Assembly: GCA_963575745.1 (NCBI GenBank)
Contig: CAUYUJ010000207.1
Location: 1 to 64,000 of the forward strand
Direction: 5' to 3'
Length of the DNA stretch: 64,000 nucleotides
Source of the DNA: Prorocentrum cordatum
Lineage: Eukaryota
The notes below the pieces were generated by a model. It was not told the DNA's origin. It made no database searches and saw nothing but the letters and a program-made list of their open reading frames with translations. A program made the translations under genes and the position numbers. Positions 1 through 62,477 of this stretch are shown here, one piece after another. Within the stretch, counting starts at the first letter, position 1, and each line of letters begins with the position of its first letter.

Positions 1-1203
1 GAGGATGGCAGTTCCTGGACCTGGACAACAGTCGGTGTTTCCTCGTGCGCATCGAGACGCACGCCGGCTTCTGATGTGCTGTACCCCGAGGTGGGAGGAG
101 AAAAGGACACTTGAGTCAAAATATTTGCGTTCCCAGTGGAAGTGGAAGGAGGCCTCGAAACTGACACGATTAGGCAGTACTAAGGGGCAGGCGACGGGTG
201 AACATCCTTGGTGTTTCATGTTCCAGACGATATTTCCCTAGTTTGTGAATCTGGAGGATCGGTGGTGGAGGGCGTGCTCTTTCTCTTACTCTGACTTCGT
301 TCAGTATTGCAGGCAGTTCCTGGAAGCTTGTACTTTGGGTTCTTTGTTTGACTTGTTTGTTGTCCGTGGAGGAACTGGAGGACGAGGAAACTACATAAAG
401 GAGAGGGGGGAGGAGATGATGGCTCGTCCGTTGTCGGTGAAGGAGTCTGAGAAGCTGGCCCAGAGATTGGCCTCGAACAATGAACAGGAGCCGACTTGGG
501 ATCTGAGTGATGACGGGATCGGTCTGGAGCTGACGGGAGATTCGCTTCTTATCTGTAATTGGATCAACGGTCTCTGGTAGGTTGAGGGTGGAGAAGGAGG
601 AGATGGGGCTTCTTATCGTAGGCGGGTTGCAAATATTATTTCTCTGTTGGAAGAATTGGAGGAGGAAGGAGTACGACCCCCCTCATGGGGCAACGACTTT
701 ATTCGACACATATATCGGGAGAGTAACACAGTAGCTGATGAACTTACCCATCTAGCACGGGAAGGCCAGATATTCAGAGAGCTGTTCCACCACCGTATCT
801 TTCGCCCTGATGTTCAAGACAACTTTCGAGTTATTGGCCTCCGCGGATCCTTCGACGGCGGAGTGTGTGCCCAAGGTGTGGGCGTCGGCTGGTTTCTGCA
901 GATTGGATATATCCCTCGCTTCCATGATCCGTACCCTGACCCTGAACATATAGATAAGAGAGCTCGGGTAGTCTCCCTCTTCCCCCAAGCCTCCTCTCCT
1001 TGTCCAATCATATGGGAAGTAGTAGGGCGTTGTGCACAGGCACTCCCCTCCATAGCAGTATCACTGACGCTGAGCTTTCGGGTCTCGAGGGCCTCTTGCG
1101 GGCCGCAGCCCAGGTGGCCCAAGACCTCCAGCTGCAGAGAGACTAGGTAGGCACTTAACGGGCGCTGGGGCGCTCGGTGCCTGGTCAGCCTCCCCAAAAA
1201 AAA
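1..1203 (+). mobile_element. 3' fragment of a degenerate non-LTR retrotransposon (LINE-0): permuted RNase H region and 3' tail
   Basis: Broken ORFs 5-241, 245-580 and 647-1150 carry LELTGDSLLICNW, HIYRESNTVAD and LRGSFDGG..GVGVGW, matching the other LINEs. The A-rich tail joins GAGGTTGACGGTTTACCGCCGG. Confidence 0.85.
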
Positions 1204-2782
1204 CGGAGGTTGACGGTTTACCGCCGGCGCCCACTTCAAAATTATGTTCTCAAAATTTGAACATTCGTTCGAGCTCTAGTATTTTTTCCCGTGATATTCG
1301 ATCTTATTCCCGCTCGCCATCTTGATCTCAGCTCGATCGGGTGAATATTACTCTCGAAAAGCACTGTGGCGGGATCGGCCGTTTCGAGTCATCTTGATAC
1401 GCGCTGTCGGTATATTGGACTCAACTCGAGATACAGGACAGCTTGAGAGCTGATAAGCACACCTTATCGATTCAGAATGATCAGGCGCGTTCGTCTGTCG
1501 CATCCAGAGATCTGAAATCGGTCTGCTAGCTGAGCTAGGTCCGCAAACCTGTTCGTATTATTCGAGTCATCTTGACAGACGTTGTCGGCTTTGTGTACTT
1601 ACTCGAGCTGTAGCACAGCTACAGACTTACAGAAACCGATTCAGGATCATCGGTCGCGTTTGTCTGTTAATTCAGAGCTCTGAACTTGGTCTGCTGCCCG
1701 AGCTAGGTCGCAAACTTTTCGTCATCTTGAGAGGTGCTGTCGGTTTTCTGCACTTAACTAGGGCTGTAGGGGGGCTACAGGGCTCATAGCCACAGGAATC
1801 GATTCAGAGACATCAGGCGCGTTCGCTTGTCGCATTTAGAGGTCTGAACTCGGTCTGCTACTCGAGCTAGGTTCGCGAAACTATTCGTATTGGTCGAGTC
1901 ATCTTGGGAGGTGCTGTCGGTTTTCTGCACTTAACTCGGTCTGTAGGGGGGCTGCAGGGGGCATAATCACAGGAAACGATTCGGACATCAGGCGCGTCCG
2001 CCTGTTGCATTCAGAGGTCTGAACTCGGTTTGCTACTCGAGCTAGGTTCGCAAACCCATTCGTATTGTTCGAGTTATCTTGACAGGTGCTGTCAGTTTTC
2101 GCACGTAACTCGGGCTGTAGGAGAGCTACACAGCTGATGCGCACAGAAACTGATTCGAAATCATTTTGCGCGCTCGTCTGTTGCATCCAGAGGTCTGAAC
2201 CGGGTTTGCCTCTCGGACTAGCTCCGCAAAACTATTCGCATTCTTCAAGTTACCTTGGCAGATTTCGCCCCTCTTCTGCATTGACCTCGGGCTGTAAGAG
2301 CTACGAGCTGGTACGCACACAAAACGATCCAGAAGTATGAGAGGCGTTCGGCTGTTGCATCGAGAGGTCTGAAATCGCTGGGGCTGAACAACTATTCGTT
2401 CTCTACAACTTTTTTAACAGTATGCATGATCAGGAAGCTCTACGAGTCCCCCGGCGGTAACAAAGGTTGCTCAAGGCGTGGTTGCTCAAGGCGTGGTTGC
2501 TCAGCGCAGCCGACAGGGGTTTTAAACTCTGCCTGGACCTCGCCTCCAGTTTAGAGCCCCTACGCCAGCAAAGTTCTGTTTCGCTTACGTTACGAGGGCA
2601 TGCACGCATCAAGCCCCTTGGGGAGTGGGCTTCATAGCTTCCCTCTCGCCAGTTTTCAATCAGCTGAATCTTGTTGTGCACTCAGGACGCGTTACAGATA
2701 GCAGATTCGACTTGGTTGTGGCAATTTCTTCAGTTGTACTTGTACTTTGTCTCCTTGCCTCGTTCTCTTTCACATTGCAGTT

Positions 2783-3955
2783 ATGGAGGAAATGACAAAA
2801 GAAGAGGAGTTGGATATCGAAGGAATGGGAGGGGATGATCTTCAGAGCAAGATCCGTGGGGGTATACCGCCAGGTCTCTTGGACGCAGCTGCGGGAGCAG
2901 CAGGTGGACTTTTGGAGGAAGAAAAGGATGCTAAACGTCGTCGTCAGAGTGAGTTGGCACGGCAGCAGCGTGAGCAGGCATTGATTCAACAACAACAACA
3001 GCAGCTCAATCCTCAGTTGGCTGCACTCTCGCAGCTGCTCGACTCGAAGTTTGCCACGCAAAAGGAGAATTTCCAGTCTATTATGCAAGGTGAAGTTGCG
3101 CCGATCAAATTGAAGTTGGAAGAACACAGTACCGATTTGCAACGCCTCAATGCACAGGTGCAGTCACAGTAGAGACAGTTAGAAACCCTCCAAAGTAAAA
3201 CGAATGCCGATGCCTCAACAGTTGCTTCATCACGTGGGACTGGGTCGGGGAATCCTGGCTTCCAGTTCCAGGGTACTCGTGGGGAGTTTGGCTTCAAGGG
3301 TCCGAGGCCAACATTTCAACCAACGATGATAACTATAAAAGGATGGGCACGCACAGCGTCAGAAGAGCTTCATAAACGATCCAAGGCTTTACTCCCTGGA
3401 GCGGTGGCCCAGCGCCTCCTTGCGACTCTATTTCAGAAAGCGAATTGTTTGGCGCACGTGGATGAGATAAAAACGAACGATGAGAACAGTAAGAACCCCA
3501 TGGGATGTTATCAGCCCAAGATATGCTTCAAAGCCACGGCGACGAAGGATATGATGTGGGATTTTGGCAAAGTGTTCATTCAATGTTTCGAGCAGAAAGC
3601 CATCTTTGAGGATCCACACGGCGCGACCACGTATAACCACATCTGTGATGAAAGGATCACGGTCACTGTGGAGGCCTCTCCGTGGCAAGAACCGCACATC
3701 AAAGCTGCTGGCAAATTCAAGGCCCTATTTTATAAGCATCGTTCGTGTGCCAGCGCCTTTGTAAAGGTTGAGAAATATGGACCCCCAGCCACGTTTCTTT
3801 GGGCTTACCCGTCCGAGCAGCAGCTGCAAAAGGGACAGTGTGTTGCCTCATGGAAGCCTGATCGTGCAGTGGGTTGGAAGATTGATGAGGATATGATCAA
3901 GGAAGTCGATCCAAACTTCAAACTGGGGGATTTCAAAGCTGATCTCATGAGTTGA
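2783..3955 (+). pseudogene. LINE ORF1 (coiled-coil, Q-rich N-terminus) with premature stop
   Basis: Same protein as 10710-11882, but TAG at 3170-3172 where copy 2 has CAG. Confidence 0.85.
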
Positions 3956-6900
3956 CGGTGCCCTGGCAAGTGGCACGAACAATTGGCTGAGGTTGATCGC
4001 TCAATTTTCAGCTGGAACGTTCGTTTGCTAGGGATTGCACAATGCCACGAGATTTTCGCCCAGGTCTTCAATTCAAGCAATGTGATTCTCCTTCAAGAGT
4101 GCCAGTTTGTCTCCGATCGTGTTGCTGAGGAACACGGTTGGAATCTTTGGCGCTCCTCTTGTGAGCGATCGTGCGTGGGCCTCCGTGGTGTTTGGAAGGA
4201 CGATGTCCAACGCGAGGCCAGAGGCGACCGTTGGGTTGCCGTTGTTTGCTCTAATGTCATCTTTCTCTCTCTTTACTTGCCGCATAAGTATTTGCATGGA
4301 AAGTCTCGTGAGCAGGTTTTGCGTACGCTTAGTGTATACCAAGAAGTGCTGAGGGATACAGCGCTCAATGTTGCCAGACTGAAAAAGCAGTTTCGAATTC
4401 AGGATGTTGTTTTAGGAACCGATGCTAGTGTGGAGGTTGAGCCTCAGGTTTTCCACATGTCTCAGGCTGTCTCGGGTCCTAGTGTTGTTGGTGTGCCTAT
4501 TGTCCCTCGTACGAGGGATGGCGGATTTCAGAGGCGATCTAAGGAGTTTGCTTTGGAACTCAGCGAGGCTCTTACTTCAACTATTGGCACCCTGGGCCTC
4601 CAGTTGGCCGACACTTTCAACCCTACGAGGCTCCCTACCTGGCGCTCTGCTAAATGGGCTCACTACAGGCACCTACCTCAAGAACAGCAGTACTCTCACG
4701 TCTATGACTACATAGGTGTACCTTCGTCTTGGGGAGCTCCTGAGGTCTCCGTCTTGTGGCCACAGCCGGGGGCAGCACATATGTCTGGGAGCTCGGCCTC
4801 GAGTTTTTGGAGTGATCATGGTCTGTTACACTTGCGTGTCCCTGCTCGTGTCTTGCCTCGTCGAGTTGAGCGTCCCAATCCTGTCCGCAACACACGTTGG
4901 CATGTTCAGTCTCATCGTGTACCTCTTTTGCGCTATGCGGTTGGTGCAGCCCTGGTGTCTGGCAACAGCCAGACAGAACAGACCGATTGGAGTGGACATA
5001 CGGGTCTCTCGCCCACGGAGCTAGGTGACATGATTCGACAGCCCTGTGAGGAAATCGGCGAGGTCCCCACCAAAGCAGACCTTGCCCCGAAAGTTTCTGA
5101 GCAGTATGTTGCCGCTCGGGAGGCCGCACTTGAGATGAGGAGGAAGAGAAATAAGGGTGAATGCACGGAGGAGGAGTTCAAGAAGGCGAGGAGGAGGTAT
5201 AGATATGAGAGGAGGAAGCATGGGAGGAATATCTTGGAGTATGAGTTCCGTCCAGGTCTACAGCATCGAACATACCTTAAGACGCTCAAAGTCGAGGGGG
5301 TGCTCACTTGGGACAAGTCTAAGTGGGAGAAGGCCCTCAGAGCGCACGGTCTGGCCATGTATACTGATGAACATGAGCGTGCACGCACAAACAGTAAGCT
5401 GGAGGAGATGAGGAAGAGGTTGCAGGAGGTGAATACGCAGGAGTACCAGCCTATCGATATCGGCCTGCTCATGCGTGCTAGGTCTCGTCTTCGTTCAGGA
5501 AAGGCCGTAGGTAAGGACAACATCAGCGTCTCCATGCTTAAGCACATCCCTTGGTCAGGTTGTCTTCAAGTCTTGCGGTGCTTTCAGCAGCTGTTTATGC
5601 GCGAGTATTGCACACCCACAGAATGGTGCCATATATGTATACAGCTGATGCCGAAGTCTGTGAAGACTTGCGAATTCAATGACACACGAGCTTTATCATT
5701 ATTATCTTGCCTGTCAAAATGGTATATGTCATGTCTCACCTTGTTGGCCGTGGACCATCTCAAACGGAGTGTTGCCCCCGAGGTCATGCTCTTCGGGTTT
5801 GTTGCTGGAAGACGGACACACGATATTACTGGTGGTTTGAAGAGAGTTGCTCAGCACGCGACAGAATGGGGGAAGTCATATTGTATGCACATGGCGAGCT
5901 TAGACGTGTATCGTGCTTTTGATAACGTACAGGTGGCAGACGTTGCTGACTGCCTGGAGGAGTTGAGGTTTCCACCTGAACTTAGTTATGCGCTCATGGA
6001 GGGCCTAGCTGAGAACAGGGCCGATTTATCTTTCCAGCAGGTGGATGTCTCGGACATAGCTTGGGATAGTTGTAACCGCACAGGTAGTGTTGAGGCTCCG
6101 CTCTTTTAGCTATGTGAGAGTGTGCTCATGTTCCGTTCTGTTGTCTTGAGTTGGCAGGAGCGGGGGATGGGTGTGCAGTTGACGCAGCAGGCAGGTACTC
6201 GTCATCTTACACATGCTATTTGGGCCGACAATGTTCTGTTGTGTGCCAGGGATCAGGGTGAGTTGACGACCATGATTGCGGAGATCAGTGTCCCACTTTA
6301 TCACAGGAAGTACAGATGGAAACCGAGTAGCTTGCAGTTTATTCGCTTTGGCTATGATGAGCCTGGGATCGAGAGTTTGGATGTCTCTTTTGCGTTGCCG
6401 ACTTCCCAGGATAAGCGTCAGAGAGTGACTATAACGTTGCAGCAGACAGATCGTTTGGAAATACTTGGCACGATTCTTGAAAACAGTATGCGACAACATG
6501 AGGACTTAAATCATCGGATTTCTCTCGCACAAAAGGCGTTTTGGCAAGATAAGAAGTATTACATGTGCCACGGTATTAAGTTGAAGAAAAGATTGCGGCG
6601 ATATGACTCACGTGTAAGAAGCCGATTCTTGTTTGCAGTGGAAGGGATGACAGCTGACAAAAATGCTATTGAATCGATTCATGCGTTTGAAGGCCGCTTA
6701 CTGTCGAAGATGGTATGGAGACGGAAACGTGACACTGAGAGTTGGCCACAGTTTTTCCAGAGCGTGTACTTGACGGGGCGGAAAGCACTCAGGACAGCTC
6801 AGATGCCGAGTGCGGTCCAGCTCTTTCTTTTCAAACAGTGGAGTTGGGCAAAGGATGTGGCGACGACAACTGCTCAAAACGGGATCCGCCAAGTTGATGA

Positions 6901-8326
6901 CGCCCAGCCTACAATTGATCCAATGGAAATGGATGGTGCAGTGTCTCTTCATATGGATGGGATGTCTCAGAATGCGGGTGCTACTGTACCGATTACCACG
7001 GATTTGATGTCTCAGAATGCGGGTGCGAGTGTACCGATTACCACGGGTTCGATGTCTTTGAATGCGGGTGCTGCTGTACCGAGCACCGGAGATCTGAAAC
7101 GACGGAGAGTGACTGTTATTGTGGCCCCTGTCCTTACTGCCCGAGGGGACCTCACTGTTGCTCTGCCTGAGGGTCTGGAGAACAGCGCCACGAGTCAGAA
7201 CCGACGACGGCTTATCTCTCAGGCGTCCCGTGCTGCTGCCAAAAGGAGCAGGAATGCTCCCACATCATCAACGCCATCATCATCATCAGCCCCTACACCA
7301 GCGCCAGCTGCCATGCGAAGAAGGTTTCGAAGTGATATGGTGGGGGCGAGTGCGGATGACCCTTTCTTGCAGGCCCGTTACACGATGATGCATGCCGCCA
7401 GCCCGTGGACTCAGCAGATGGATGCCGTTATTCGCACATATAACTCGCAGGAAGCACGATCCTTTACACGTCGAAGGGAAGGTGGAAAAACAGTGGGACT
7501 TCGTCCGTGGGGCTTGCCTTTTGAAACGGTGGGTGGAGATGCTTGGTATGATACTCTTGAGTGGACTCAGGCAGGGTGGAGATGTTTTATCCGTACGTTG
7601 CTTTCGGAATGGGACCTACAACATGTTTTAGAATATGCTCACCTGCCTGAACCAAAACCCTGGAGGCAGAAAAACGACGAGGAGGAGGTGGAGGGGACGG
7701 AGGAGAGAAATAATGAGATTGCAAAGCGGCTCGCCTATAACTTCGAGAATGCCAGCGTCTGGAACTACGAGGCTGAAGGGGTTCCCGTCGAGCTCTGTGG
7801 TGACTCCCAGGTGGTAGTGAACTGGCTGGTGGGACAATATGTATGTACGACGGAAGTGTATTGTGAGACCATTGCACACATTCAAAGTATATTATACAGA
7901 CTACACTTGAACTACCGCGTGAATCTGAGGCCGCCGTCTTGGGGTTTAGATCCTTGGAAGTGGTTTTATCGTGAGGGAAATGAGCGTGCTGATGCTGAAA
8001 CTTGGAAGGCCCGCGCGGGCCAGAACCATCGTACTTTCGACCCGTACATTCATACTCTCAGAAGGGAACAAATAAAGGGGATTCGCGGCTACTTCGATGG
8101 TGGTCGGTCCTCCCACGGTGTTGGCATTGGTTGGGTCATTGACTTATTCGTGCTCCCCCTCCCTGCTCTTCAACACTCTCAAGGCTCTTGGCTATTCAAC
8201 ATAGCCTCCGAGGCTGCCGCCATCCCGCCGACCTGCACGGTTAGTCAAGCTGAGCTCTTGGCCAGCAAGCGCCTCGCTGAAGGTGTCGAGCACCTGCTGC
8301 TCCTCTGCTGCGGACCTGAATCCTGA
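3956..8326 (+). pseudogene. LINE ORF2 (APE endonuclease, RT, permuted RNase H) with premature stop
   Basis: Motifs SWNV, LLQE, SDH, LDVYRAFD and WADN (6221-6232). TAG at 6107-6109 where copy 2 has TGG. APE DAN changed to DAS. Net 72 bp shorter than copy 2 near 5430. Confidence 0.9.
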
Positions 8327-8765
8327 GCGGGGGCTCCCCTGTCCCTGTGGGCTCCGAGCAAAGCAAAAACAAAGGTTGACGGTTTACCGCTGGCGCCCAG
8401 TTTTGGACGCTACAAAGTGGACGCTACTAAGTGGTCAGTTGAAAATTCCTCGTAGAGCTCTTCGTCATCCCTCGTAGAGCTCTTTGACATCGATGAGCTA
8501 GAGGAACTCTGGCGCGGGATTGAGCTAGTACCTCGTAGAGCTCTTCGGCATCGAAGAGCTAGAGGAATTCCGGCGAGGGGCGGAGCTAGTTGGCCCACCC
8601 GGCTGGGGCGGACAAATTGGTGACTTTTGGTTGGTTTTGCGAAAATTTGAAAGATATTCAACAATGTATTTTTCCTGGAGAGCTCTCTGAGAGCTAGAAG
8701 GTTTTAGATTAGAAGCCGGACGGTGGTGGTGTCTGCCAGCAGCCCATCTTCGCCGCTCCAGAATC

Positions 8766-8886: not shown

Positions 8887-10709
8887 AGGGGAGCCCCCAG
8901 AGCTCCAGAAGCGCTTCACGAGAGCGTCCGAGGGCCCCCAGGAAAGCTTTCCGGCGTGTATTCGAGCTCTAGTTTTCCCACCATATTCGATCTAATTCCC
9001 GCTCGCCATCTTGATCTCAGCTCGATCGGGTGAATATTTCATCAAAAAAGCGTCGCGGCGGGATCGGCTGTTTCGAGTCATCTTGATACGCGTTGTCGGC
9101 ATTTTGTTCTTAACTCGAGCTGTAGGGCAGCTACAGAGCTCATTATCACAGACATCGATTGCGAATCATCAGGCGCGTTCGTCTGTCCCATCCAGAGGTC
9201 TGATCTCGGTAACTCGTAGAGCTTCCCTTAGCAAGTTATTGCTGGAAGCTTCAGAGTAATTCTGGGGCGCTGGAGAGCTAGTTGGCAAGAAAAATCTCGA
9301 CGGACCTTTTGGTGACTTTCGGTCGGTTGAAAATTTTGTTTTCGAAATTCCCTAATTCGTTTGAGCTCTAGTATTTTTTCCCCTGATATTCGATCAAATT
9401 CCCGCTCGCCATCTTGATCTCAGCTCGATCGGGTAGCTTTTACTGCCAAAAAGCACACTGGCGGGATCGGCCGTTTCGAGTCATCTTGTCACGCGCTGTC
9501 GGTTTTCTCAAGATAACTCGAGCTTCAGGACAGCTACAGAGCTGGTGAGCACAGCTAATCGATTCAGAATGATCAGGCGCGTTCGCCTGTTGAAGCCAGA
9601 GGTCTGAACTCGGTCTGCTAGCCGAGCTAGGTCCGCAAACCTATTCGTATTATTCGAGTCATCTTGACAGACACTCTCGGTTTTCTGTACTTAACTCGAG
9701 CTAAAGGACAGCTACAGAGCTGATACGTACAGAAATCTGATTCAGAATGATCAGTGGCCGTTGTCTGTTGAATCCAGAGCTCTGAACTCGGTCTGCTGCC
9801 CGATCTAGAATCGCGAAACTATTCGTATTGTTCGAGTCATCTTGAGAGATGCTGTCGGTTCTCTGCACTTAACTCGGGCTGTAGGGGGGCTGCATGGCTG
9901 GTAATCATTGGAATCGATTCGGAGACATCAGGCGCGTCCGCGTGTCGAATCCAGAGCTCCGAACTCTGTCTGCTGCCCGAACTAGGTCCGCGAAGCTATT
10001 CGTATTGTTCGAGTCATCCTGAGAGGTGCTGTGGGTTTCCTGCACTTAGCTCGGGCTGTAGGGGGGGCTGCAGGGCTGGTAATCACAGGAATCGATTCAG
10101 AGACATCAGACGCGTATGCAGAGGTCTGAACTCGGTCTGATACTCGAGCTAGGTTTGCCCAACTATTCGTATTGTTCGACTCATCTTGAGAGGTGCTGTC
10201 GATTTACGCACGTAACTCGGGCTGTAGGAGAGCTACAGAGCTCGTACAGAAGACAATCCAGAAGCATCGGGGGCGTTCGGCTGTTGCATCCGAGAGGTCT
10301 GAAATTGCCTGGGCTGAAAAAATATTTTTGCTGTGTAATTTTTTTCGACATTACATGTTGTCAGGAAGTCTACGAGTCCCCCGGCGGTAACAAAGGTTGC
10401 TCAAGGCGTGGTTGCTCATCGCATCCGACAGGGGTTTTAAACTCTGCCTGGACCTCGCCTCCAGTTTAGAGCCCCTACGCCAGCAAAGCTTTTGTTTCGC
10501 TTACGTTACAAGGCACACACGCAGTCAAGCGCTGACTCCGTGACAGGCATCACGGTGCCCGATCTTTGCACTCTCGCCAGTTTTCAATCAGCTGAATCCT
10601 GTTGTGCACTCAGGACGCGTTACAGATAGCAGATTCATCTTGGTTGTGGCAATTTCTTCCGTTGCACTTGTACTTTGTCTCTTTGCCTCGTTCTCTTTCA
10701 CATTGCAGT

Positions 10710-11882
10710 ATGGAGGAAATGACAAAAGAAGAGGAGTTGGACATCGAAGGTATGGGAGGGGATGATCTTCATAGCAAGATCCGTGGGGGTATACCGCCAG
10801 GTCTCTTGGATGCAGCAGCGGGGGCAGCAGGTGGACTTCTGGAGGAAGAAAAGGATACCAAACGTCGTCGTCAGAGTGAGTTGGCACGGCGGCAGCGTGA
10901 GCAGGCATTGATTCAACAACAACAACAGCAGCTGAATCCTCAGCTGGCGGCACTCTCGCAGTTGCTCGATTCGAAGTTTGCCACACAAAAGGAGAATTTC
11001 CAGTCTATCATGCAGGGTGAAGTTGCGCCGATCAAACTGAAGTTGGAAGAGCATAGTACCGATTTGCAACGTCTGAATGCACAGGTGCAGTCACAGCAGA
11101 GACAGTTAGAAGCCCTCCAGAGTAAAACCAATGCCGATGCATCAACAGTTGCTTCATCCCGTGGGACTGGGTCGGGGAATCCAGGCTTCCAGTTCCAGGG
11201 TACTCGTGGTGAGTTTGGTCTCAAGGGTCCGAGGCCAACCTTCCAACCAACGATGATAACTATAAAAGGATGGGCACGCACAGCGTCGGAAGAACTTCAT
11301 AAACGATCCAAGGCCTTACTCCCTGGTGCGGTTGCCCAGCGCCTCCTGGCGACTCTATTTCAAAAAGCGAATTGCTTGGCGCACGTGGATGAGATAAAAA
11401 CGAATGATGAGAACAGTAAGAACCCCATGGGATGTTATCAGCTCAAGATATGCTTCAAAGCCACGGCGACGAAGGATAGGATGTGGGATTTTCGCAAAGT
11501 GTTCATTCAATGTTTCGAGCAGAAAGCCATCTTTGAGGACCCACACGATGCGACCACGTATAATCACATCTGTGATGAAAGGATCACGGTTACGGTGGAG
11601 GCCTCTCCATGGCAAGAACCGCACATCAAAGCTGCTGGCAAATTCAAGGCCCTATTTTATAAGCATCGTTCGTGTGCCAGCGCCTTTGTAAAGGTGGAAA
11701 AATATGGACCCCCAGCCACGTTTCTGTGGGCTTACCCGTCCGAGCAGCAGCTGCAAAAGGGACAGTGTGTTGCCTCGTGGAAGCCTGATCGTGCAGTGGG
11801 TTGGAAGATTGATGAGGATATGATCAAGGAAGTCGATCCAAACTTCAATCTGGGGGATTTCAAAGCTGATCTCATGAGTTGA
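10710..11882 (+). CDS. LINE ORF1 protein, 390 aa (coiled coil plus conserved C-terminal domain)
   Basis: ATG at 10710 follows a pyrimidine tract ending GCAG. Motifs FQPTMITIKGW, VEASPW..PH and GPP are shared with the ORF1s at 28701, 41495 and 47290. Confidence 0.85.
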   Translation: MEEMTKEEELDIEGMGGDDLHSKIRGGIPPGLLDAAAGAAGGLLEEEKDTKRRRQSELARRQREQALIQQQQQQLNPQLAALSQLLDSKFATQKENFQSIMQGEVAPIKLKLEEHSTDLQRLNAQVQSQQRQLEALQSKTNADASTVASSRGTGSGNPGFQFQGTRGEFGLKGPRPTFQPTMITIKGWARTASEELHKRSKALLPGAVAQRLLATLFQKANCLAHVDEIKTNDENSKNPMGCYQLKICFKATATKDRMWDFRKVFIQCFEQKAIFEDPHDATTYNHICDERITVTVEASPWQEPHIKAAGKFKALFYKHRSCASAFVKVEKYGPPATFLWAYPSEQQLQKGQCVASWKPDRAVGWKIDEDMIKEVDPNFNLGDFKADLMS

Positions 11883-26853: not shown

Positions 26854-26866
26854 TTGGCAAGAAAAA

Positions 26867-47289: not shown

Positions 47290-48672
47290 TTGCGAGCAGG
47301 CCGCCTGCACTTGTTTGCGGCATTTTGCCGCGTCGAGCTGGACGGGACGAGCCAGAGTCAATCGATCGATTTGGACCGCTGGGGAGCCAACTTCGGACAT
47401 TGGGAGTGGGAGTATCTTGCCAGACAGGTTGGTAGAGCTCGACACGACGATAAGGATTCTCTAGTCGACATACCATCTGGGTCACCTGATCTCTCTCCCA
47501 CTTTACCTCGCCATCCTGTTGCCCCATATAACTTTCATCAGTTGAGTGCACATCTCAAACGTACTCGTGAAGATCGATCGTTCTGTGCGAAGTGGAATAT
47601 CCCTTGTAATATCTCAGACGGCAAGATGGCTGCCTCATCAGCTGCTGCGGTCCCCGAGGTTTTCGCTATGGACGCCACTGATATGCCCGTTCCAGGAGCC
47701 AAGGAGGAGGAGGTCCCAGAGGGAAAACGGGTCAAAATTCAGACGGTTGAAGGCCTCGAGGAGGCCATGACAAAGGGGATGGACAAGATCACGACGCTTG
47801 TTGCATCTCTGGGAGGTAAGATGACGGAGGGCTTCCAATCAACACATCGAAGCATCACGGATCTCGGCACCCAGCTCAATGCTCGTGTTGATTCGGTGGA
47901 GAAAAATGTACAGCAGGCGATGACGGACATAGATGCTATTACTAAGAAGGTTGAGGATCAGAGGCTCCAGATAATCCAGCTCCAGCAGGCTCCTGCAGGT
48001 GGGGCCCCCAGAGCAGGCACCTCTACGACAGCGTCCTCGGCGGAAACTCGGCAGTCAGTGCAGAATTTCACCCCATCGTTCGTCGAGCTCAAGGGATGGG
48101 TGACGGACTGGAGGGATGCAGAGAAGCGTCAGGAGGAGATGTTATCACAGCAGGCGTTGAATTCACTGCTGAATGAGGTCCTGGCTGGAGAATGGTTCAG
48201 TGGTGTGAAGGAGTTTCTGGACCTGAACCAATCCAAGAGGTTCAACACAGGTAGAGAGGCGTGGGGGTATTCGCGTGCTCGGCTCTATTTCCAGAATGGG
48301 GTTACCAGTGACCAGCTGTGGGATCTTCGTCGTCGACTCGTTGCCGCGATCGCCGACAACAAACTCCAGCACGCTCCCAGGGCCCTCAAGGTCCACGTGG
48401 AGGCCCCCCCCTGGAAGAAGCCCCATCTGGATGCCGCTGGGATCTTTCAGGCCAAGTTCAAGAGTTTCAAGAAGCATCATTCGAATCTCAGGGCTGAGAC
48501 GGGACCACCGATTACGTTCATGTGGGGCTCCAGTGACCACTTACCACCTCCAGGGAAGATTGTGGCCAAGTTCTCTCTGCAGAATGGCTGGGAGATCACT
48601 CGTGCAATGAATCAGCTTGAGCCAGGGATCAACATTGATGAGTTGCGAGCGAGGATTTCCAGTACGAACTAG
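47290..48672 (+). CDS. LINE ORF1 (start codon uncertain; first ATG at about 47626)
   Basis: Open 460-codon frame with a coiled coil, FTPSFVELKGWVTDW, VEAPPWKKPH and GPP. Confidence 0.82.
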   Translation: MRAGRLHLFAAFCRVELDGTSQSQSIDLDRWGANFGHWEWEYLARQVGRARHDDKDSLVDIPSGSPDLSPTLPRHPVAPYNFHQLSAHLKRTREDRSFCAKWNIPCNISDGKMAASSAAAVPEVFAMDATDMPVPGAKEEEVPEGKRVKIQTVEGLEEAMTKGMDKITTLVASLGGKMTEGFQSTHRSITDLGTQLNARVDSVEKNVQQAMTDIDAITKKVEDQRLQIIQLQQAPAGGAPRAGTSTTASSAETRQSVQNFTPSFVELKGWVTDWRDAEKRQEEMLSQQALNSLLNEVLAGEWFSGVKEFLDLNQSKRFNTGREAWGYSRARLYFQNGVTSDQLWDLRRRLVAAIADNKLQHAPRALKVHVEAPPWKKPHLDAAGIFQAKFKSFKKHHSNLRAETGPPITFMWGSSDHLPPPGKIVAKFSLQNGWEITRAMNQLEPGINIDELRARISSTN

Positions 48673-51600: not shown

Positions 51601-52852
51601 TGTTGGGATTGGGCTAAGGATGTCTCAGTTGCTGCAAGTATTCGTATGAGGAGATACACAACACACACAGAGGAGGAGGAGGGAGAGACGGTACCAAATC
51701 GGCGTCAGAGGAAAACTCGGGCGATGGCGGCGGCGGCGACTTCTCAAACATATCATGTAACTCAGATATCCCAGATGTCGAGTGGCTGTCGCCGGCGTAC
51801 ACCAGATGACCAGCCTGCCATACCTGAGGAGTCGGACATGTCACGTGAATGGATGATATCTAGGCTGGCCATGATTACATGGAAGGGGGAAGTGGACGGA
51901 ACATCGTGACACATGTATTCTAGCAATGCCTGTAAAAGATAGGAAGCAGCTGACACGCGTGAACGTAGGCGGCCGCCCCCGTGGACATACTGCGTGGGAC
52001 TGGTGCTTGTGCGATCTCTTTGGTTGTGAGTGGTACCTCTCATTCGACAGTTCCGCTGGGTCCCGTGAGAAATACTGCAAGCATTTGCTGACTGTGATTG
52101 GTATGCAACACTTGTTCGACTTGTTTGTTCTACCCAGGCCGCCTGGTGTGAGACATGTGAAGGCAGAGGAGGAGGAGGAGAGTGAGATGAATGAGAGGAT
52201 GAGCAAACGTATTGCCGCAAATTTTGAGAATGAAACGGAGTGGAGGTGTGAGAATATTGAGCGTCTTGGGATGGAGATCTTGGGAGATAGTAAGACTGTT
52301 GTAAACTGGATGTGTGGTGAGTGGCAGATTCGCAACAAGCAGTATGTACGACTGGTGGGAACACTACAAAATACGGTATCGATGCTGTCTGGATGGGGAC
52401 TGACCTCACCTGCATCGGGACAGAATCTGTATAAGCATTTCTTTCGTGAGGGTAATGAGCGTGCGGATAAATTGTCGTGGGAGGCCAGAGGTGGCCAAAC
52501 TATTACTCGCTGGTTTGCATATGATAAGTTCCTCAGTACTCGTAAGACTGCTCTCCGTGGTGCATTCGATGGGGGTGTCAGTAATGAAGGATGTGGAGGT
52601 GGGTGGTGGCTTCAGATTGGCGTTGTAGGTAGGGGTTCCAGCGTGCAGGTTGATTTTCCCATCTCCTCCTCCTCCTCCTCCTCCTCCTCTTCCTCCTGCA
52701 CCAGCTCGCACAGCTTCCATTGGCACGATGTGGCCGAGGAGGCGATGAGCTTGCCTCCTGGTAGCACGGTAACCTGCTGTGAACTAGCTGCCTGCGCTGC
52801 CCTGACGAGAGCTGCTGCTAAGGTGGCGTGCGCTCTGCTACGACCTACCTAA
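48673..52852 (+). pseudogene. LINE ORF2 (APE-RT-permuted RNase H) with one frameshift
   Basis: Motifs ASWNV, DAN, SDH, LDILQAFD, IRTGGVEGP and WADN (50980-50991). Frameshift at about 51890-51925 before the RNase H part (51926-52852). Confidence 0.88.
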
Positions 52853-54517
52853 GATGGTGGGGGCTCAGTTGCACTGCTCCGCCGATTCGGATTCGGATTC
52901 TAGTGGCGGACCGCAAACCGCAAAAAAGAGAGGTTGACGGTTTACCGCCGGCGCCCAGTCTGCAATCTGAGTACTTTTACGCGTTCAAGGAGCTCTACGA
53001 GGTTCCCGGCGGTGACCAGGTTGACGGTTCACCGCCGGCGCCAGTTCCGGGGCGCTGGAGAGCTAGTTGGCAAGAAAAATCTCGACGGACCTTGTGGTGA
53101 CTTTTGGTCGGTTGAAAATTTTGCTCTCGAAATTCAACAATTCGTTTGAGCTCTAGTATTTTTTCCCATGATATTCGATCTTATTTCCGCTCGCCGTCTT
53201 GATCTCAGCTCGATCGGGTACCTTTCACTGCCAAAAGCAGGCAGGCGGGATCGGCCGTTTCGAGTCATCTCGACAGGCGTTGTCGGTTTTTTTGTAATTA
53301 ACTCGAGCTATAGGACAGCTACAGAGCTGATACTTACAGAAACCGATGCAGAATAATGAGACGCGCTTGTCTGTTGAATTCAGAGCTCTGAACTCGTTCT
53401 GCTGCCCGAACTAGGTCCGCGAAACTATTTGTACTGTTCGAGTTATCTTGAAAATTGCTGTCGGTTTTCTGCACTTTACTCGGGCTCTCGGGTGGCTACA
53501 GGGATGATAGCCACAAGAATCGGTTCGGAGACATTAGGCGCGTTCGTCTGTCGCATTCAGAGGTCTGAACTCGGTCTGCTACTCGAGCTAGTTTCGCGAA
53601 ACTAATCGTATTGTTCGAGTTATCTTGAGAATTGCTGTCGGTTTTCTGCACTTAACTCGGGCTGTAGGGGGCTAGAGGGATGATAATCACAGAAACCGAT
53701 TCGGAGACATCAGGCGCGTCCGCCTGTCGCATTCAGAGGTCTGAACTCGGTCTGCTACTCGAGCTAGGTTCGCGAAGCTATTCGTATTTTTCGAGTCATC
53801 TTGAGAGGTGCTGTCGATTTTCACAAGTAACTCGGGCTGTAGGACAGCCACAGAGCTGATACGCACAGAAACTGGTCCGAAATCATTGTGCGCGTTCGTC
53901 TGTTGCATCCAGAGGTCTGAACTGGGTATGCTACTCGAGCTAGGTCCGCAAAACTGTTTTCTTGAAGTCACCTCGGCAGATGTTGATTCTTTTTATGTAT
54001 TGAACTCCGGTAGGAGAGCTACAAGCTGGCACACACAGAAAACGATCAAGAAGTATCAGGGGCGTTCGGCTGTTGCATCGAGAGGTCTGACATCGCTCGG
54101 GCTGAAAAACTATTCCTTCTCTACAAAATGATTCACATTACATATGGTCAGGAAGCTCTACGAGTCCCCCGGCGGTAAGAAAGGTTGACGGTTTACCGCC
54201 GGCGCCCAGTTGGCAAATCCGGCCCGGGCGGACAATGTGGTGACCTGGGGTCGGTTTTTCGAAGATTGCGAGAGATTTTGAAATTCATTTTGCGAATTCG
54301 AATTTTGTTCTATGCAGTTAATCATGGCGCTTTCGATGGTGCAATCCTTAGGGCTCTAGCTGCATTATTTCGATCAAAAGACTAGGGGGAACCAACCGTG
54401 TGTAACACCGAAAACAACATTTCTTTTTTTGCAAGCTTGTTTTCAGAAGCGTTTTTCTGCTGTTATCAGGGAACTGACTTGGTCTATTCAGAGCTCTACG
54501 AGGGTCCCGGCGGTAAC

Positions 54518-54727
54518 GGGCGTGTGTGTGTGTGTGTGTGTCGGGCATGCGCGCATGTTGGTATAAGAGCTCCGCGTGCTTTTCACTTTGTTCGGAATAA
54601 GAGTTTCGCACGTGCCCACTTCCGCTCAAAGAGTGGTGGGTGTCTTGCCTGACTCTGTATGCCGCCCTTTTTCCTGCTAGCGACTGGGCCTGACGGCCCG
54701 CATAGTCGATCGCAAAGACCGCAAAAA
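54518..54727 (+). mobile_element. Short SINE-like or 3'-UTR-only retroposon in the hairpin target
   Basis: Lies between GGTAAC and ACAGGTTGACGG. Has a (GT)n start, is homologous to about 36867-37000, and ends in the stem-bulge-stem plus CGCAAAGACCGCAAAA. Confidence 0.8.
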
Positions 54728-56815
54728 AACAGGTTGACGGTTTACCGCCGGTTCCCAGTTATTCGAGTGATCTTGACGGTGCTGTCGGTTCTCTATACTT
54801 AACTCGAGATGTAGGACACCCACAGAGCTCATATTAACAGAAACCCATCCTGAATGATCAGACGCGTTCATCTGTTCCACCCAGAGGTCTGAACTCGGTC
54901 TCATACTCGAGCTATTTCCACGAAGCTATTCGTATTATCTGGGTGGTCCTGACAGGTGCTGTCGGTTTTCTGAACAGCACTCGAGCTGTAGGACAGCTAC
55001 AGAGCTGGTATTAACAGAAACCCTCTTAGAATGATCGGGCGCCTCGTGTGTTGCATCGAGAGGTTCGAACTCGGTCTGCTACCCGAGCTAGGTCCGCGGA
55101 GCTATTCATATTGTTCGAGTCATCTTGACAGACGCTGTCTCTACTTAACAGCAACCCATCAAAAATCATCAGGCACATTCATTTGTTGCACCTAGAGGTC
55201 TGAACTCGGTCTGCTCCTCGAGCTAGGTCCGCAAACTTATTTCTATTATTCGAGTCATCTTGACAGGTGCTGTCGGTTTTGGACTTAACTCGAGCTAGGA
55301 GAGCGAAAGAACTGATACGTACAGAAACCCATTTGAAATCATCAGGGCGTTCATCTGGTGCATCTAGAGGTGTGAACTCGGTCTGCTACTCGGGCTAGGT
55401 CCGTGAACGTATTCGTATTATTCGAGTCATCCTGAGAGAAGCTGTCTGTTTTCTGTACTTATCGAAATGTGGGAGGGCCACAGGTCGTACGCACATCAAC
55501 CGATTCAGCATCATCAGGCGCGTGCGTCTGTTGCATCGAGAGCTCTGAACTCAGTCTTGTATTCGAGTCTGCTATCAGCGGAGGCCGAAAAACTTTTCGT
55601 TCTCTGCCAATTCTTTGGACATAGAATATGGCAGGAAGCTCTACCGGAGGTAAGAAAGTTGACGGATTACCGCCGGCGCCCAGTTGGCCCACCCGGCCCG
55701 GACGGACAATGTGTGAACTTTGGGCCCGTTGGGCGAAAATTCTGAGGAATTTGAACATTCGTTTTGAGATCTGGTATTTTTCGCACCTGTAGTGGGTTAT
55801 GCCGCGTCTGCCACTAAAACTCTCAGGTTTCTAGCTGCAGTATTACTGTCAAAACACTTGAGGGAACTTTCTTTGGGCATAAACTAAAAAAACATGTTTT
55901 TCGAGTTTTCAGCTCATATACGAGAAAGCTTCTCCCGCGTCTTCCGAGCAGCGCCGTGCGAGCAAAGAGCTCTACAAGGCTCCCAGCGGTAATCTCGTTG
56001 AGGGTTTTCCGCCGGCTTCCAGTTGGCCGACGCGACCAGAAAGGACAAAGTGACAACTTTTGGATGGTTTTGCGAATATTTGAAAGATATTTGACCATTT
56101 ATGTTAAGAAAGCAGATTTTTGCGCGTAGCATTAGAATCGGAACTTATTCTTAAAGCAGCTCAGTTCTCTAGAGAGAGTTTTACTATCCGAAAATTAGCG
56201 GGAACTGACATCGGAGTGACATCGACAAATGGAAAGTTGACGTTTTTTTGAGAAAGGCCCCGAGAAGCTGTCTGCTTTGATTCTGAGCATTTTCGTGCCT
56301 GCAAGGAGCTCTACGAGGTTCTCGGCGGTGCCCAGGTTGACGGTTCACCGCCGGCGCCAGTTGGCCCACCTCGCCCGGGCGGACAATGTGACAACTTGGC
56401 GTCGGTTCTTCGAAGATTGTGAAAGATTTGAAAATTCGTTTCGGGAACCACTATTTTTGTAACGTGAAGTGGGTTGTGCCGCGTTTGCCTGTTCAATTCT
56501 CAGGTCCCTAGCTGCACTACTACTGTCAAACAACGTGGAGGAAACATTTGGCCGTCGGGAAATATTTTCCAAAATGATAATGGTCCCGTGCATTCGACAA
56601 GAGCCTCAACGCAAGATACATTACCCCAGTATTTCTCTGATATGTTTTAGATTATGGCGCGTCGGTCTGTTGAATATCGAGATCCTGAGTTGTCATTGAA
56701 ACACAACCTACACTGACATATATTTCAAATTATTGTTAGGCCAATATTTACTCGAGCTCTCTGGTCGACATCTGAGCATTATTACGTGACTCGAGAGCTC
56801 TACGAGGGTCCCGGC

Positions 56816-57266
56816 AAGAAGCATCGGAAACGGCACGGATGACATATTCATTGATTGTCGGTGCACAGTACACTTTCATTGACTGTCGGAGGATACGTTC
56901 GTTGACTGTTGGAGTACGCATACATTGATTGTCGGAGTACACATTCATTGACTGTTGGAGTATGCATTCATTGATTGTTGGAGGTCCATTAACTATTGGA
57001 ACATACACTCATTGATTGATAATTGATAATTCATTGCATGAGGTCTTACTTTGATAATTGTTAATTTCATTGCATGAGGTCTTACTTCAACTGCATTGAT
57101 GCTCTCTCTCGTTGCTCTTCGCTTCATTTGTAGCGGCGACGTGAGGCGTAGTAGATACTTCAAGAGTATCACGTTTTTCAGGGTACATCCAGCCCACAGG
57201 GGATGGCTGCACCAACCCGACCGCCCTTGTAGGGCCCCGTGGTCGGACCGCAAGCCGGAAAAAAAA
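56816..57266 (+). mobile_element. Non-coding retroposon with internal minisatellite in the hairpin target
   Basis: Lies between host CCCGGC and CAGGTTGACGG. Contains ~20-25 bp ACATTCATTGA(C/T)TGT repeats and a 3' stem CCGACC/GGTCGG followed by CGCAAGCCGGAAAA. Confidence 0.72.
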
Positions 57267-59127: not shown

Positions 59128-62100
59128 GGCGAGGAGGGAGGTGCAGTCGATTCTGGAAGGTCTGGCATCGAAGCTCAACCAGTCCCAGTGCGTGAGCATC
59201 ACCATGCATGACATCTTGCGAGCGAGGGCTCGCCTCAAGAGTGGGGCGGCTGGACCTGACCAAGTGACACGGGAGATGCTGCAGCTCATCCCCTTTGCCA
59301 GCCTCAAGACAATCCGACATCATTTCAGCCTGATCGCTAATCGTCGTCAACAGGTCCCCTCGGATTGGAAGAGGTTTCTGGTAACTCTCATCCCGAAGGC
59401 GCCGTCCATTCAGGAGCTCTCAGAGACTAGGGCGATCTGCCTCCTGAGCCTGGTCCAGAAGTGGTACAACCATGTCCTAGTCATTAAAGGGGAACAACAT
59501 CTGGTGAATATCAAACACTCTCTTAACATGTATGGGTTTGTGCAGTTCAGGAAGGTTTCTGAGGTCACATCGTTTACCAAACATCTTTGCCAACATGCGG
59601 CACAATGGGGAAAAGGGGAGAAGCTCTATCTGGCCAGCCTCGATGTACTCCAGGCGTTTGACCACGTTACTATCAAGCTAGCGTTACAAAGTATGGAGAA
59701 GCTTGGTTTTGACCCCGCTTTGATTTATGCCCTTCTTTGTCCTATGACCGAAAACACGTGTAAAGCCACCTTCGAAGGGACCCAGAATTTGGATTGGATT
59801 GGTTGGGATCGGAGTATCAGGACGGGCGGGGTGGACGGACCATTCATATTCAAAGTGGTGAGTGTGGCCTTGTGGAATGATATCGTCGGGACCTGGCCAG
59901 GGCGTGATCTGGGTTATGTAGTCGAGTCCCCCGTTCCCATGCCCACTAGATCGACGATTTCACATGCCCTCTGGGCGGACAATTTGCTGCTGTACGCTAG
60001 AGATGAACGGCAGCTCAGGACCATGGTGACTGAGCTCACTCTCCCCCTGCTCCAGGCCGGCCTCAATTGGAAACCATCCTCTCTCAAGCTCATCCCCTTT
60101 GGCGTCAATGGCTCGAATGATGTAGTTCTTCATATCCAGGCCCACACGTATAAACTTGAATGCGTTAACACTTTGGACATCCTGGGTTACAGGTTGGACA
60201 GATATTGGACACAGCATAGCGATCTGCAGTTCAACTTGGATCGTGCCCGTGGGGCCTTCTTTGCCGACATTGAATATTACAGAAGTCATCGCATCCCGAT
60301 TGAGAGACGATTCCAGCGATACCGACTCCGTATCCAGAGTAAGCTACTTTTCGCAATTGAGGGGATGACGATTGACAACATCACGGCACAAAAAATATTC
60401 TCCTGGGAAGGAAAGTTATTAGCTATCATCGGAGGAAGGAGGAAAGGAGTGAATGAAGATTGGACGGTCTACCAAAAGAGGAGGTTCAAGTATGCTCGCG
60501 ACCAGTTCGCCAACCTTGGATTTCTGTCGGCGGTGGAACTCTTCATTCACAAGAACTGGCTCTGGGCCAAAGATGTCGCTTGCTTTGCCAGAGGCTTTGC
60601 GTGTCAAAATATCCCGACAGCTGCGCTGCACACGGACAGAGTACATGCTTTGTCTCAGAGTGTTTCGCCTGAGCCCCAGAGACCTGCGGCTATGTTTGAT
60701 AGCCGTGGGGGACTGACGGAGCACAAAAAAGATTGTCAACGTTCTTCTGGTCGTGTGTCGTCTGCGTCCAGTATAAGAGCTTCTTTGGAGCCGAACAAAA
60801 AGGATGCTCATTGTTCTTCTGGTCGTGTGTCGTCTGCGTCCAGAATAAGAGTTCCTTTGAGTGATCCGCTGCAGGTGGCGCATCTGTTAGAGTGCGCCAG
60901 GCTCCTGGAAGAAAGGAGCAGCCAGCGTGAATCCCAAGGCACTGTCAGTCCTGCGGCCACAGCCCCCCCAGTCGAAGGCGAGAGCGAACCCACGCCCGCG
61001 GCCAAGAACCGTCGCAGGCAGATTGTGGAGACCCGTCTGGCCGCCAGGGGAGAGAAGCGGTGCCCTGGCCCGAGTCTCACGGCGAGCCAGGAGGAGCTCG
61101 CCAAGCGTGTCAGACAGCCCCAGCGCCCATGCGACAAAAGAGATCGGGATGAAATATGTTCGCCGAGGGGCAGTCAAAAGAGACGGTGTATTGCTCAGGT
61201 GAATGATGACCCCATCGCTTCCGCCGATAGTCTGCCTGCTGCCCCACAGGGAAGTAAGCGACCACGGGACCTCCCCTCTTCTAGCCATGATAGTGAGCCG
61301 CGAGAGGCACGACCCTCTGGCGCAAACGTGAATGTCTTCAAACTCAACGCCTACTCTCAGGCGCGGTTGGGCATGATGCATGCGTCAGGTGACTGGGCCG
61401 CTCATCGTCGCGCGTTCGCTGCGCGCTCGAGGGATTCCCAGGCTGCTCTTCTTGGATGGCGTGGTGGTACTAAATACGTCGGCTGGAGAAAATGGGAAGA
61501 TGTCTTCATTGCGGATCAAGATGGCAACACTAAATGGTGGGAGACTATGACGTTTGGGAAAGAAGATTGGTCGATTTTCGTTGAGAAGTTGCTCAAAAGA
61601 TTGCACCTGCCCGCCATTCTTGACTATCTGGCCAAACCTAGAGTTTCGGTTGCCCGTACGGAGGAGGAGGAGACGAAAGTTAATAATGATAGGATTGCGC
61701 GTCGCATCGCTCATAACTTTGAAAATGAGACTATCTTTGACTATGAGGCGGATAAGATTCCATTTGAAATACTGGGTGATAGCTTGTGTGTGGTCCAATG
61801 GATAAGAGGGCACTGGAGGTGCACGAACATGGGCTATAATAACACCTTGGAGGCGGCACAAAACACTCTTGATGCTATAACGGACACCTGTTTGAGAACT
61901 GCGTGCGCGGGGGCTGACCCAATCAAACATCTTTATAGGGAGGGTAACAGTTATGCTGATGAACTCACGTGGGCTTGCAGAGCTTGCCCACACACATCGA
62001 AGAGAAACGAGTATCTTGCCCCTTTATATACTTCGAAAGTTTTAGGATTGAGGGGTTACTTCGACGGAGGCACCTCGGATATTGGGGCTGGGGGAGGCTG

Positions 62101-62357
62101 GTGGCTGCAGGCTTTTGTAGAACATAAAAATGCTATACAGTGTCACGTGATTGCCGAGGAGGCGTTTGGCCTCGATAGGGAGTCAACCGTGACGGTCTGT
62201 GAGTTAACGGCCGCCTCGAAGCTAATTCACGCAATCTCGCAGATTGCGTCTGTTATAGATAGCGTCTCACACGCTCGGTAGAGCCACTTGCGCCTGGTGG
62301 CCGCGGGGAGCACCGCTGCTTGCATGTGCTGGAGGACCCCACCGCAAAGCCCGCAAA
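59128..62357 (+). mobile_element. 5'-truncated non-LTR retrotransposon LINE-6 (family E): RT plus permuted RNase H
   Basis: Begins right after host AGAGCTCTACG. The frame is open to 62281 with LDVLQAFD, IRTGGVDGP, WADN (59972-59983), GDS, REGNSYAD, FDGG and CE. Tail CCGCAAAGCCCGCAAA joins AACCTGGTTGACGG. Confidence 0.9.
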
Positions 62358-62477
62358 AACCTGGTTGACGGTTTACCGCCAACTCCCAGTTTCCCCTCCC
62401 CGACGGTCTCTTCGCTCTCCGGGTCTTGGAGGCTACCAAGTGGACGCTACCAATGGACGCTACCCAGTGTACACCTG

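Follow-up and report, generated by a model that had tools for sequence, protein, structure and literature searches.

The Tx1L elements of Xenopus, long interspersed elements (LINEs) of the Tx1 clade, insert in Tx1D DNA transposons. Target-specific groups among APE-type LINEs are the Tx1 and R1 clades in the account of Kojima and Jurka (2015, PMC4640811), which has transposons among the known targets. Here, we present an analysis of 64,000 nt from Prorocentrum cordatum (GenBank assembly GCA_963575745.1, contig CAUYUJ010000207.1, positions 1 to 64,000; hereafter the window), the entire 64 kb of which consist of repeats. Ten retro-insertions interrupt copies of a non-coding repeat, and very probably they stem from a diversified lineage of APE-type non-LTR (long terminal repeat) retrotransposons that integrates site-specifically, in one orientation, into the 3′ hairpin loop of an abundant non-autonomous Helitron2/HINE-type element, which we call the host. 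The lineage comprises the LINE families A, B, D, E, H and I and the non-coding elements C, F and G, and we read it as a guild of site-specific APE-type LINEs with a new class of target.

As with Tx1L, an APE-type LINE is found at one sequence inside another transposon and in a fixed orientation. The Tx1 target, however, is a cut-and-paste transposon, whereas here a rolling-circle element is hit in the loop of its terminal hairpin, a site shared by at least six deeply diverged families and their non-coding dependants. The elements described here also differ from Tx1L by a WADN motif C in the reverse transcriptase (RT) and by C-terminal RNase H-like motifs in permuted order; the likeness drawn here is one of behaviour. 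With R1 and R2 (28S rDNA) and Utopia and Keno (U2 small nuclear RNA genes), as portrayed in PMC4640811, the locus shares precise 3′ and variable 5′ junctions, tandem insertions, the presence of several families on one multicopy target and the coexistence of intact with disrupted targets. Unlike the targets of those elements, which are host genes under selection, the target here belongs to a selfish element, which needs its terminus for transposition and keeps it conserved on that account, and R2 and Utopia possess a restriction-like endonuclease instead of the APE type. What sets the locus apart is the kind of target, namely the loop of a rolling-circle element's terminal hairpin, together with the breadth of the guild and the sparse sampling of the lineage. 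The initial model-made reading of the window, which had the letters and a list of open reading frames (ORFs) at hand (the sequence-only reading), knew of no LINE with this target, and our search of the full-text literature, with Repbase, Dfam and subscription journals outside its scope, likewise returned no description of a LINE targeting Helitron-type elements; for the inverted-repeat motif of the host it returned only unrelated primer matches.

The target is the 3′ palindrome of the host, which reads CCGGCGGT(A/G)A, a loop of 3-4 nt, GGTTGACGG and T(T/C)ACCGCCGG. The motif GGTTGACGGT (at most one mismatch) is present 39 times in the window compared with 3.8 expected occurrences and a maximum of 10 in 100 shuffles, CCGGCGGTRA is present 67 times (4.5 expected), and both motif halves are enriched ~10-15-fold over shuffles. 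A fuzzy scan for the right half of the hairpin yielded 36 sites on the plus strand, 26 with the left arm directly upstream and 10 without it. At nine of these ten, an A-rich retroelement tail lies upstream (GGTTG starting at 1208, 8374, 16373, 33758, 37490, 52932, 54732, 57269 and 62363), and the tenth, at 35619, is a degenerate host fragment. Together with one intact hairpin on the minus strand (63296-63328), the two strands contain 27 intact hairpins (26 plus, 1 minus) and nine occupied ones, which hold ten retro-insertions, two of them in tandem at one site. Folded as DNA, the host palindrome reaches -11 to -14 kcal/mol (z-scores between -2.3 and -3.4); the stem exceeds 10 bp in the host subfamilies with GTGA/TCAC arms or a cct loop.

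All ten retroelement 3′ ends lie at one loop position before GGTTG, and all ten elements have the orientation of the host, as the sequence-only reading had proposed; its 3′ coordinates hold within a few bases and mark the last bases before the duplicated target. The 3′ junctions consist of the A-rich tail, the last loop bases with GGTTG, and then ACGG with the right arm; the exception is the GGTTG at 47178-47182, which runs into the 5′ end of the next LINE (E) instead of a right arm. At five of the nine visible 5′ junctions we found target-site duplications (TSDs) of 10-14 bp ending in GGTTG (A1, A2, B and C, Table 1; E, up to AAAAAGAGAGGTTG, 14 bp with the A run included), matching the five that had been noticed before at 10-11 bp except for the possible extension in E. 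For the other insertions, a partial loss of the left arm or a 5′ end outside the window had been stated; indeed, D, F, G and H retain the host 3′ subterminal repeat at their 5′ junctions, where the loop is missing or the left arm is reduced or absent, and I runs off the window. The arm variants (GTGA/TCAC versus GTAA/TTAC), the loop and the trailing bases agree with one host subfamily on both sides of the insertions, which indicates that every site had been a single unbroken hairpin until the insertion occurred. Because the matching left part of a host hairpin lies 5′ of every visible insertion, the inserts do not include the right half, and this excludes the case that had been named as refuting the proposal, namely that the LINE brings the downstream GGTTGACGG with it. 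The claim that no insertion lies elsewhere in the host repeat is borne out to the extent that we saw no retroelement tails in those low-copy intervals of the window outside the insertions that were read. By our own arithmetic, the chance of ten 3′ ends falling at one offset of a ~36-copy motif in 64 kb is negligible. The sequence agagaGGTTG stands between the D tail and the 5′ end of E and again after E. This repetition points to two successive duplicating insertions, one of which entered a site with arms already ~5.8 kb apart, so that an intact hairpin is not required for insertion.

Table 1 Coordinates of the host units, target hairpin, inserted elements and protein domains in the window
Feature	Position	Strand	Details
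Full-length host unit, Helitron2/HINE-type, non-coding	25642..26854	+	Assigned by comparison of its features with published elements
Short-subfamily host unit, hairpin intact	63277..63696	-	Inside 177-bp repeat, between T and T, no TSD
Intact target hairpin CCGGCGGTAA-gaaaGGTTGACGGT-TTACCGCCGG	20904..20937	+	10-bp stem; DNA fold -11.3 kcal/mol, z -2.3
LINE family I, 3′ part: C-terminal ORF2 domain, in-frame stop	1..1203	+	3′ end adjoins cggaGGTTGACGG; 5′ end beyond window
LINE A1, in-frame stops	2470..8367	+	11-bp TSD AACAAAGGTTG
LINE A2, apparently intact	10400..16366	+	ORF1 ~10710-11879, TGA; ORF2 11883-16322, 1480 aa; 11-bp TSD AACAAAGGTTG
LINE B, degenerate	28700..33752	+	10-bp TSD AACCAGGTTG
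Non-coding element C, LINE-type 3′ module	36230..37484	+	10-bp TSD GACCAGGTTG
LINE D	41378..47172	+	Host left arm cut to ..CCCCCCGG; tail then agagaGGTTG
LINE E, in tandem behind D at one hairpin	47183..52925	+	agagaGGTTG on both sides
Short non-coding element F	54517..54727	+	Host left arm intact, loop lost; (TG)n run at 5′ junction
Non-coding element G	56814..57264	+	Host left arm cut to ..CCCGGC
LINE H, 5′-truncated within ORF2	59132..62357	+	Host 3′ subterminal repeat kept; left arm and loop lost
APE-type endonuclease domain, A2 ORF2	11883..12800	+	AF2 pLDDT 84.1, pTM 0.87
RT core, A2 ORF2	13680..14312	+	Pfam RVT_1 6.7e-07; motif C WADN
C-terminal ORF2 domain, RNase H-like motifs in permuted order	15762..16322	+	Motif order; AF2 pLDDT 87.7

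The junctions, TSDs and protein domains together point to target-primed reverse transcription. The ORF2 endonuclease would nick the bottom strand where the left stem meets the loop, directly 5′ of ACCGCCGG, and the freed T-rich 3′ end would then prime on the A-rich RNA tail. A cut of the top strand 10-11 nt downstream, after GGTTG, would produce the 10-11-bp duplication ending in GGTTG; both positions are those predicted by the sequence-only reading. Imprecise joining at the 5′ end may have led to the cases of lost loop or left arm. By parting the hairpin arms, an insertion might disable the host copy, as the sequence-only reading had supposed. Since the target is abundant, conserved and non-genic, it may serve as a safe harbour, as rDNA does for R1 and R2.

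The host itself can be compared with two groups of published elements. In the account of Bao and Jurka (2013, PMC3627910), Helitron2 elements form a hairpin at either end, have a 5′ T and terminal inverted repeats that are asymmetric, and occur in excess as 5′-truncated copies. Helentron-associated HINE/DINE-1-like elements, according to Thomas et al. (2014, PMC4067079), insert at TT and have tandem repeats at their centre; their subterminal repeats lie 2-4 nt inside the 5′ end and 38-60 nt before the 3′ end, from which the palindrome is 8-35 nt away. The T-T insertion rule for Helentron-type elements also appears in PMC13085455. In the window, the host forms a non-coding head-to-tail array that takes up about half of the sequence and lies on the plus strand save for one copy (63277-63696). 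Self-comparison of the window gave 16-90 matches per position in host parts and 0-1 in the inserts. The core of the inverted repeat, CTCGTAGAGC, was counted 13 times on the plus and 27 times on the minus strand (0.12 expected). In the full-length unit of Table 1, the 5′ inverted repeat ACTCGTAGAGCTTCC begins at 25643, preceded by an A, and 177-bp tandem repeats follow (25906-26676; two to five copies per full host unit). The 3′ part consists, in order, of the inverse repeat GGAAGCTCTACGAGT, three bases, the 34-bp palindrome (26813-26846) and the terminus CGCCCAGT. The terminal inverted repeats are thus asymmetric, one near the 5′ end and the other subterminal, upstream of the 3′ hairpin, which is the defining arrangement of the class. 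A 5′ hairpin involving the 5′ repeat (AGCTTCC..GGAAGCT) is present at 25648-25680 and 40170-40200, and a T precedes all other full-length host 5′ ends. Host subfamilies differ by a compensatory stem change (GTAA/TTAC versus GTGA/TCAC, A:T to G:C) and also in loop and trailer. The minus-strand unit provides one clean case of an insertion point, AATAGT^TTCGCGG, with neither TSD nor A tail.

Compared with the HINE/DINE-1-like Helentrons of PMC4067079 and the Helitron2 elements CRe-1/2/3 of PMC3627910, as these sources present them, the host is alike in its subterminal inverted repeat, which stands 1-2 nt inside the 5′ end and ~45 nt before the 3′ end. It also shares with them a palindrome 8 nt from the 3′ end, tandem repeats that fill half or more of the unit, T-T insertion without TSD and the excess of 5′-truncated copies; unlike them, it has no autonomous Rep/helicase partner that we could see, and each 5′ end follows directly behind the previous 3′ end. 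Judged from its sequence, this anatomy supports an assignment of the host to the Helitron2/HINE-type rolling-circle elements. Host units are stacked head-to-tail and variably 5′-truncated directly behind the preceding CCCAGT (16401-28382, 37518-41377 and 53047-59131), and nested stacks of host 5′ ends occur, for instance, at 8440-8560 and 62836-62880. This stacking and truncation resembles the one-ended or 5′-truncated copies reported for Helitron2 non-autonomous elements. Two further segments lack a retroelement tail, a GC-rich palindromic stretch of 288 bp within one host unit (8673-8960) and a CT-rich low-complexity stretch of 450 bp (62392-62840) that separates the 3′ end of a host unit from the full-length 5′ end of the host unit that follows.

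A related terminus was also found in other DNA. The scan of public genome contigs for the target returned seven loci, five of which are chance matches in bacterial sequence, and the scan of viral contigs returned none. The remaining two (L009 and L012) are short, AT-richer contigs of one public marine assembly, in which inverted repeat and hairpin are 88-92% identical over ~50 bp and the surroundings of the terminus are otherwise unrelated to the window. By its sequence, we take this terminus to be that of a related element in another genome. Both contigs (L009, 457-1520; L012, ~1493-1546) carry the hairpin CCGGCGGAAA-cct/cca-GGTTGACGG-TTTACCGCCGG in unoccupied form, and L009 has copies of the 5′ repeat ~1 kb upstream of it.

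The LINE proteins were examined mainly in family A2. ORF1 contains a coiled coil and a conserved C-terminal domain, lacks zinc knuckles and had no match in Pfam. The modelled A2 endonuclease matched APE1, ExoIII and the TRAS1 endonuclease in Foldseek (E ~1e-9, probability 1.00); it has the motifs WNV, QEC, DANVE, NTF and SDH, and in an alignment the catalytic N, E, D-N and D-H motifs are conserved in the endonucleases of A, D and E. Pfam RVT_1 was matched weakly in six of 14 scanned ORFs (3e-12 to 5.7e-4), and in a profile comparison the RT matched human L1 ORF2p at 2.6e-19, the only solved APE-type LINE protein with an RT. In the C-terminal domain, which is also seen in D (46241-46885), H (61634-62278) and I (430-900), RNase H-like motifs are arranged in the order GDS, RE.N..AD, FDGG and AEL, which suggests a circular permutation. 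The first half of the modelled domain, and this half only, aligned with the C-terminal half of RNase H1 (VIA-align Z 3.6-3.7, 24% identity), Pfam RVT_3 scored below threshold on the family H domain (0.052), and a Foldseek search with the model gave only unrelated low-TM matches.

ORF2 identity between the families is 27-43%, and at least three deep groups can be distinguished (A, B/D and E/H). A full HMMER search among 1.8 billion representatives found 166 proteins at ≤1e-30, a handful of them 55-70% identical to single families of the window. The word-indexed search of 5.8 billion proteins yielded one to two relatives, and the metagenome scan six loci on short contigs with 26-33% identity, none of which contained GGTTGACGGTT. 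In A2, A1, D and E, ORF1 and ORF2 lie in one frame with a single stop between them (11880-11882, 3953-3955, 42896-42898 and 48670-48672, respectively), which is TGA followed by C in A and D and TAG in E; this arrangement suggests that ORF2 is translated by reading through the stop. The possibility that TGA is a sense codon was considered and ruled out, as the ORFs of 1329-1480 codons contain no TGA. The stop of family A lies within AGTTGACGGT (11877-11886 and 3950-3959), nine of whose ten bases match the target core GGTTGACGGT; a comparable match was not seen at the stop of D or E, and the likeness is probably due to chance.

The inserts comprise at least six LINE families (A, B, D, E, H and I) and three non-coding elements (C, F and G), among which only A1 and A2 show mutual nucleotide similarity. 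These two are 94-97% identical, and their host units are 82-86% identical and each nearer to other units. A segmental duplication was our first reading of this pair and was dropped because the host flanks are far more diverged than the LINEs, which indicates independent insertions. The start of A1 has two copies of CTCAAGGCGTGGTTG and that of A2 one (2470-2510 versus 10400-10425), the start of D is similar (CTCAAGAAGGCGTG), and the 5′ terminal repeat of the LINEs is variable. Element F is homologous to an internal module of C (54517-54660 versus 36862-37005). In C, the module shared with F is followed by a tail-like CGCCCGCAAA at ~36995, and C may be a composite of two non-coding modules.

With the LINEs, C, F and G share only the 3′ module. 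The tail CGCAAAG-CCGCAAAA was present in eight of nine aligned 3′ ends (one per element, A1 left out), and a two-step stem-loop just upstream of it in six to seven of the nine, with different sequences, four covarying pairs and weak folding (z -2.2 to +0.4). Stem-loop and CGCAAAG-CCGCAAAA(A)n occupy the last ~55 nt, e.g., 33703-33757, 54677-54731 and 57214-57268. The shared stem-loop and tail are likely a recognition module for the RT, the common structure being an impression rather than a demonstrated motif. An Rfam gathering scan of the whole window gave no match, and no tRNA-, 5S- or 7SL-type head was found on C, F or G, and an identity of these as short interspersed elements (SINEs) in the strict sense, with an RNA-derived 5′ head and an internal pol III promoter, is not supported. 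The sequence-only reading had spoken of divergent APE-type LINEs and SINE-like elements in a Helitron2-like host. The APE fold, the RT and the 27-43% ORF2 identity agree with its first part, and the inverted repeats, both hairpins, the tandem repeats and the one T^T insertion without TSD with its last; as for the SINE-like elements, non-coding elements with a LINE 3′ module are confirmed and a strict SINE identity is not.

Copies outside the window were traced in public sequencing data. LINE E or part of it is present in 20 public runs of 14 studies, mostly aquatic metagenomes together with three coded organisms, and no RNA run is listed among them. We placed the Logan contigs of four runs from four studies on positions 41300-53100 of the window and took the figures from the joints and loose ends listed, a set beyond which there are 67 joints and 318 loose ends more. 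Among these joints, the D tail was connected directly to ..GGTTGACGG, skipping E, in all four runs. In run X6, the letters CCA stand between the D tail and GGTTGACGG, a loop which implies that D resides there in a different host subfamily, and in run X9 a loose end after the GGTTG at 53023 resembles the 5′ end of C (22 of 24 letters). The summed contig depth of the host terminus was ~130-200 times that of LINE E.

Other explanations of the locus deserve consideration. Integration might be specific for a structure or a pre-existing nick, with the primer provided by a hairpin or cruciform in extruded form, or by DNA that a Rep/helicase has nicked or made single-stranded during rolling-circle transposition, and with the endonuclease playing a minor role in the choice of site. 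The target is indeed a stable palindrome, the energies of its DNA folds lying between -11 and -16 kcal/mol and the z-scores between -2.3 and -4.0, and both junctions lie in the loop or at its edge. The D/E tandem, however, with its duplicated agagaGGTTG, records that one element entered a hairpin already split into its two arms, which favours recognition of the duplex sequence over that of an extruded hairpin. Two cuts by an endonuclease agree with the regular stagger of 10-11 bp and with the conservation of the APE catalytic motifs in all families, and Rep nicks the termini of its elements rather than a loop (see also the account in PMC13085455), so that we hold a choice of site by structure or nick to be unlikely. 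One might also suppose that the retroelements all end in GGTTGACGGTTTACCGCCGG..CCCAGT, the right half being their common 3′ tail, and that the supposed host is a SINE mobilised by them, with no foreign target involved. Host units that are 5′-truncated directly behind a preceding CCCAGT do look like retroposed copies, but such truncation is documented for Helitron2 non-autonomous elements in the account of PMC3627910, and it is the left arm and loop, not CCCAGT, that flank the LINE 5′ ends. Moreover, the TSDs end inside the loop, the two arms vary together according to host subfamily, and the 5′ ends of the host are defined and bear an inverted repeat, with an insertion at T^T that left neither TSD nor A tail, which makes a tail common to all these elements highly improbable.

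A tandem-like array that contains two LINEs of 94-97% identity could, in principle, have arisen without any choice of target, through the multiplication of one or a few ancestral insertions by unequal crossing-over or segmental duplication. We give this almost no weight, as nine of the ten inserts lack mutual nucleotide similarity and the ORF2s are only 27-43% identical, as the host sequence around A1 differs from that around A2 far more than the two LINEs do, and as other copies of D are present in a different loop variant elsewhere, according to the contigs.

Several observations weigh against site-specific integration of an APE-type lineage into a Helitron2/HINE-type hairpin. No Rep/helicase ORF was found in the window, and Helitron_like_N was not found in the one assembly with a related terminus, a search in which the control genomes gave no match either. 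The nick positions are deduced from the junctions, several of the LINE copies are degenerate, and the endonuclease stayed below the Pfam threshold (best value 0.0032, family D). Motif C of the RT (14190-14210 in A2) reads WADN, or WAEN in B, instead of Y/F-x-D-D in all six aligned sequences, so that catalytic competence rests only on past insertions; the variant also occurs in the public relatives P0001-P0003, P0006, P0007 and P0013-P0015, and the more distant P0049 and P0061 have WADD. The contig joints are weak, with short sides of 19-25 letters at 90% likeness, and run X1 is possibly the source sample. Since the flanks come from the 64-kb window and the contigs of four runs, copies with other flanks are possible elsewhere.

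A further consequence of the proposed integration would be that the LINEs split the terminator hairpin and thereby cause read-through, upon which the rolling-circle machinery would copy the LINE, including its APE gene, as part of the host element. We regard this as quite unlikely, and the window shows no sign of such composite mobilisation, A1 and A2 having the appearance of independent retro-insertions. If true, it would offer a route for the historical capture of APE domains by Helitron-like transposases (the origin of Helentrons), and the LINEs would spread by hitch-hiking at the DNA level.

Site-specific LINEs are natural models for programmable, RNA-templated gene insertion, and each new target adds a pair of endonuclease and RT with a defined recognition sequence of ~20-30 bp. 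The lineage presented here is poorly sampled, and its WADN motif C, the possibly permuted RNase H and the single in-frame stop between ORF1 and ORF2 merit biochemical work. As the target is the functional terminus of a selfish element, it would constitute a harbour that is abundant, self-renewing and conserved by the element's own needs. Genome, rolling-circle element and a LINE guild with dependent non-coding elements form a testable system of three levels, which opens up the questions of whether Helitron-type elements are limited by hyperparasitism and of how a single site can support several LINE lineages side by side.

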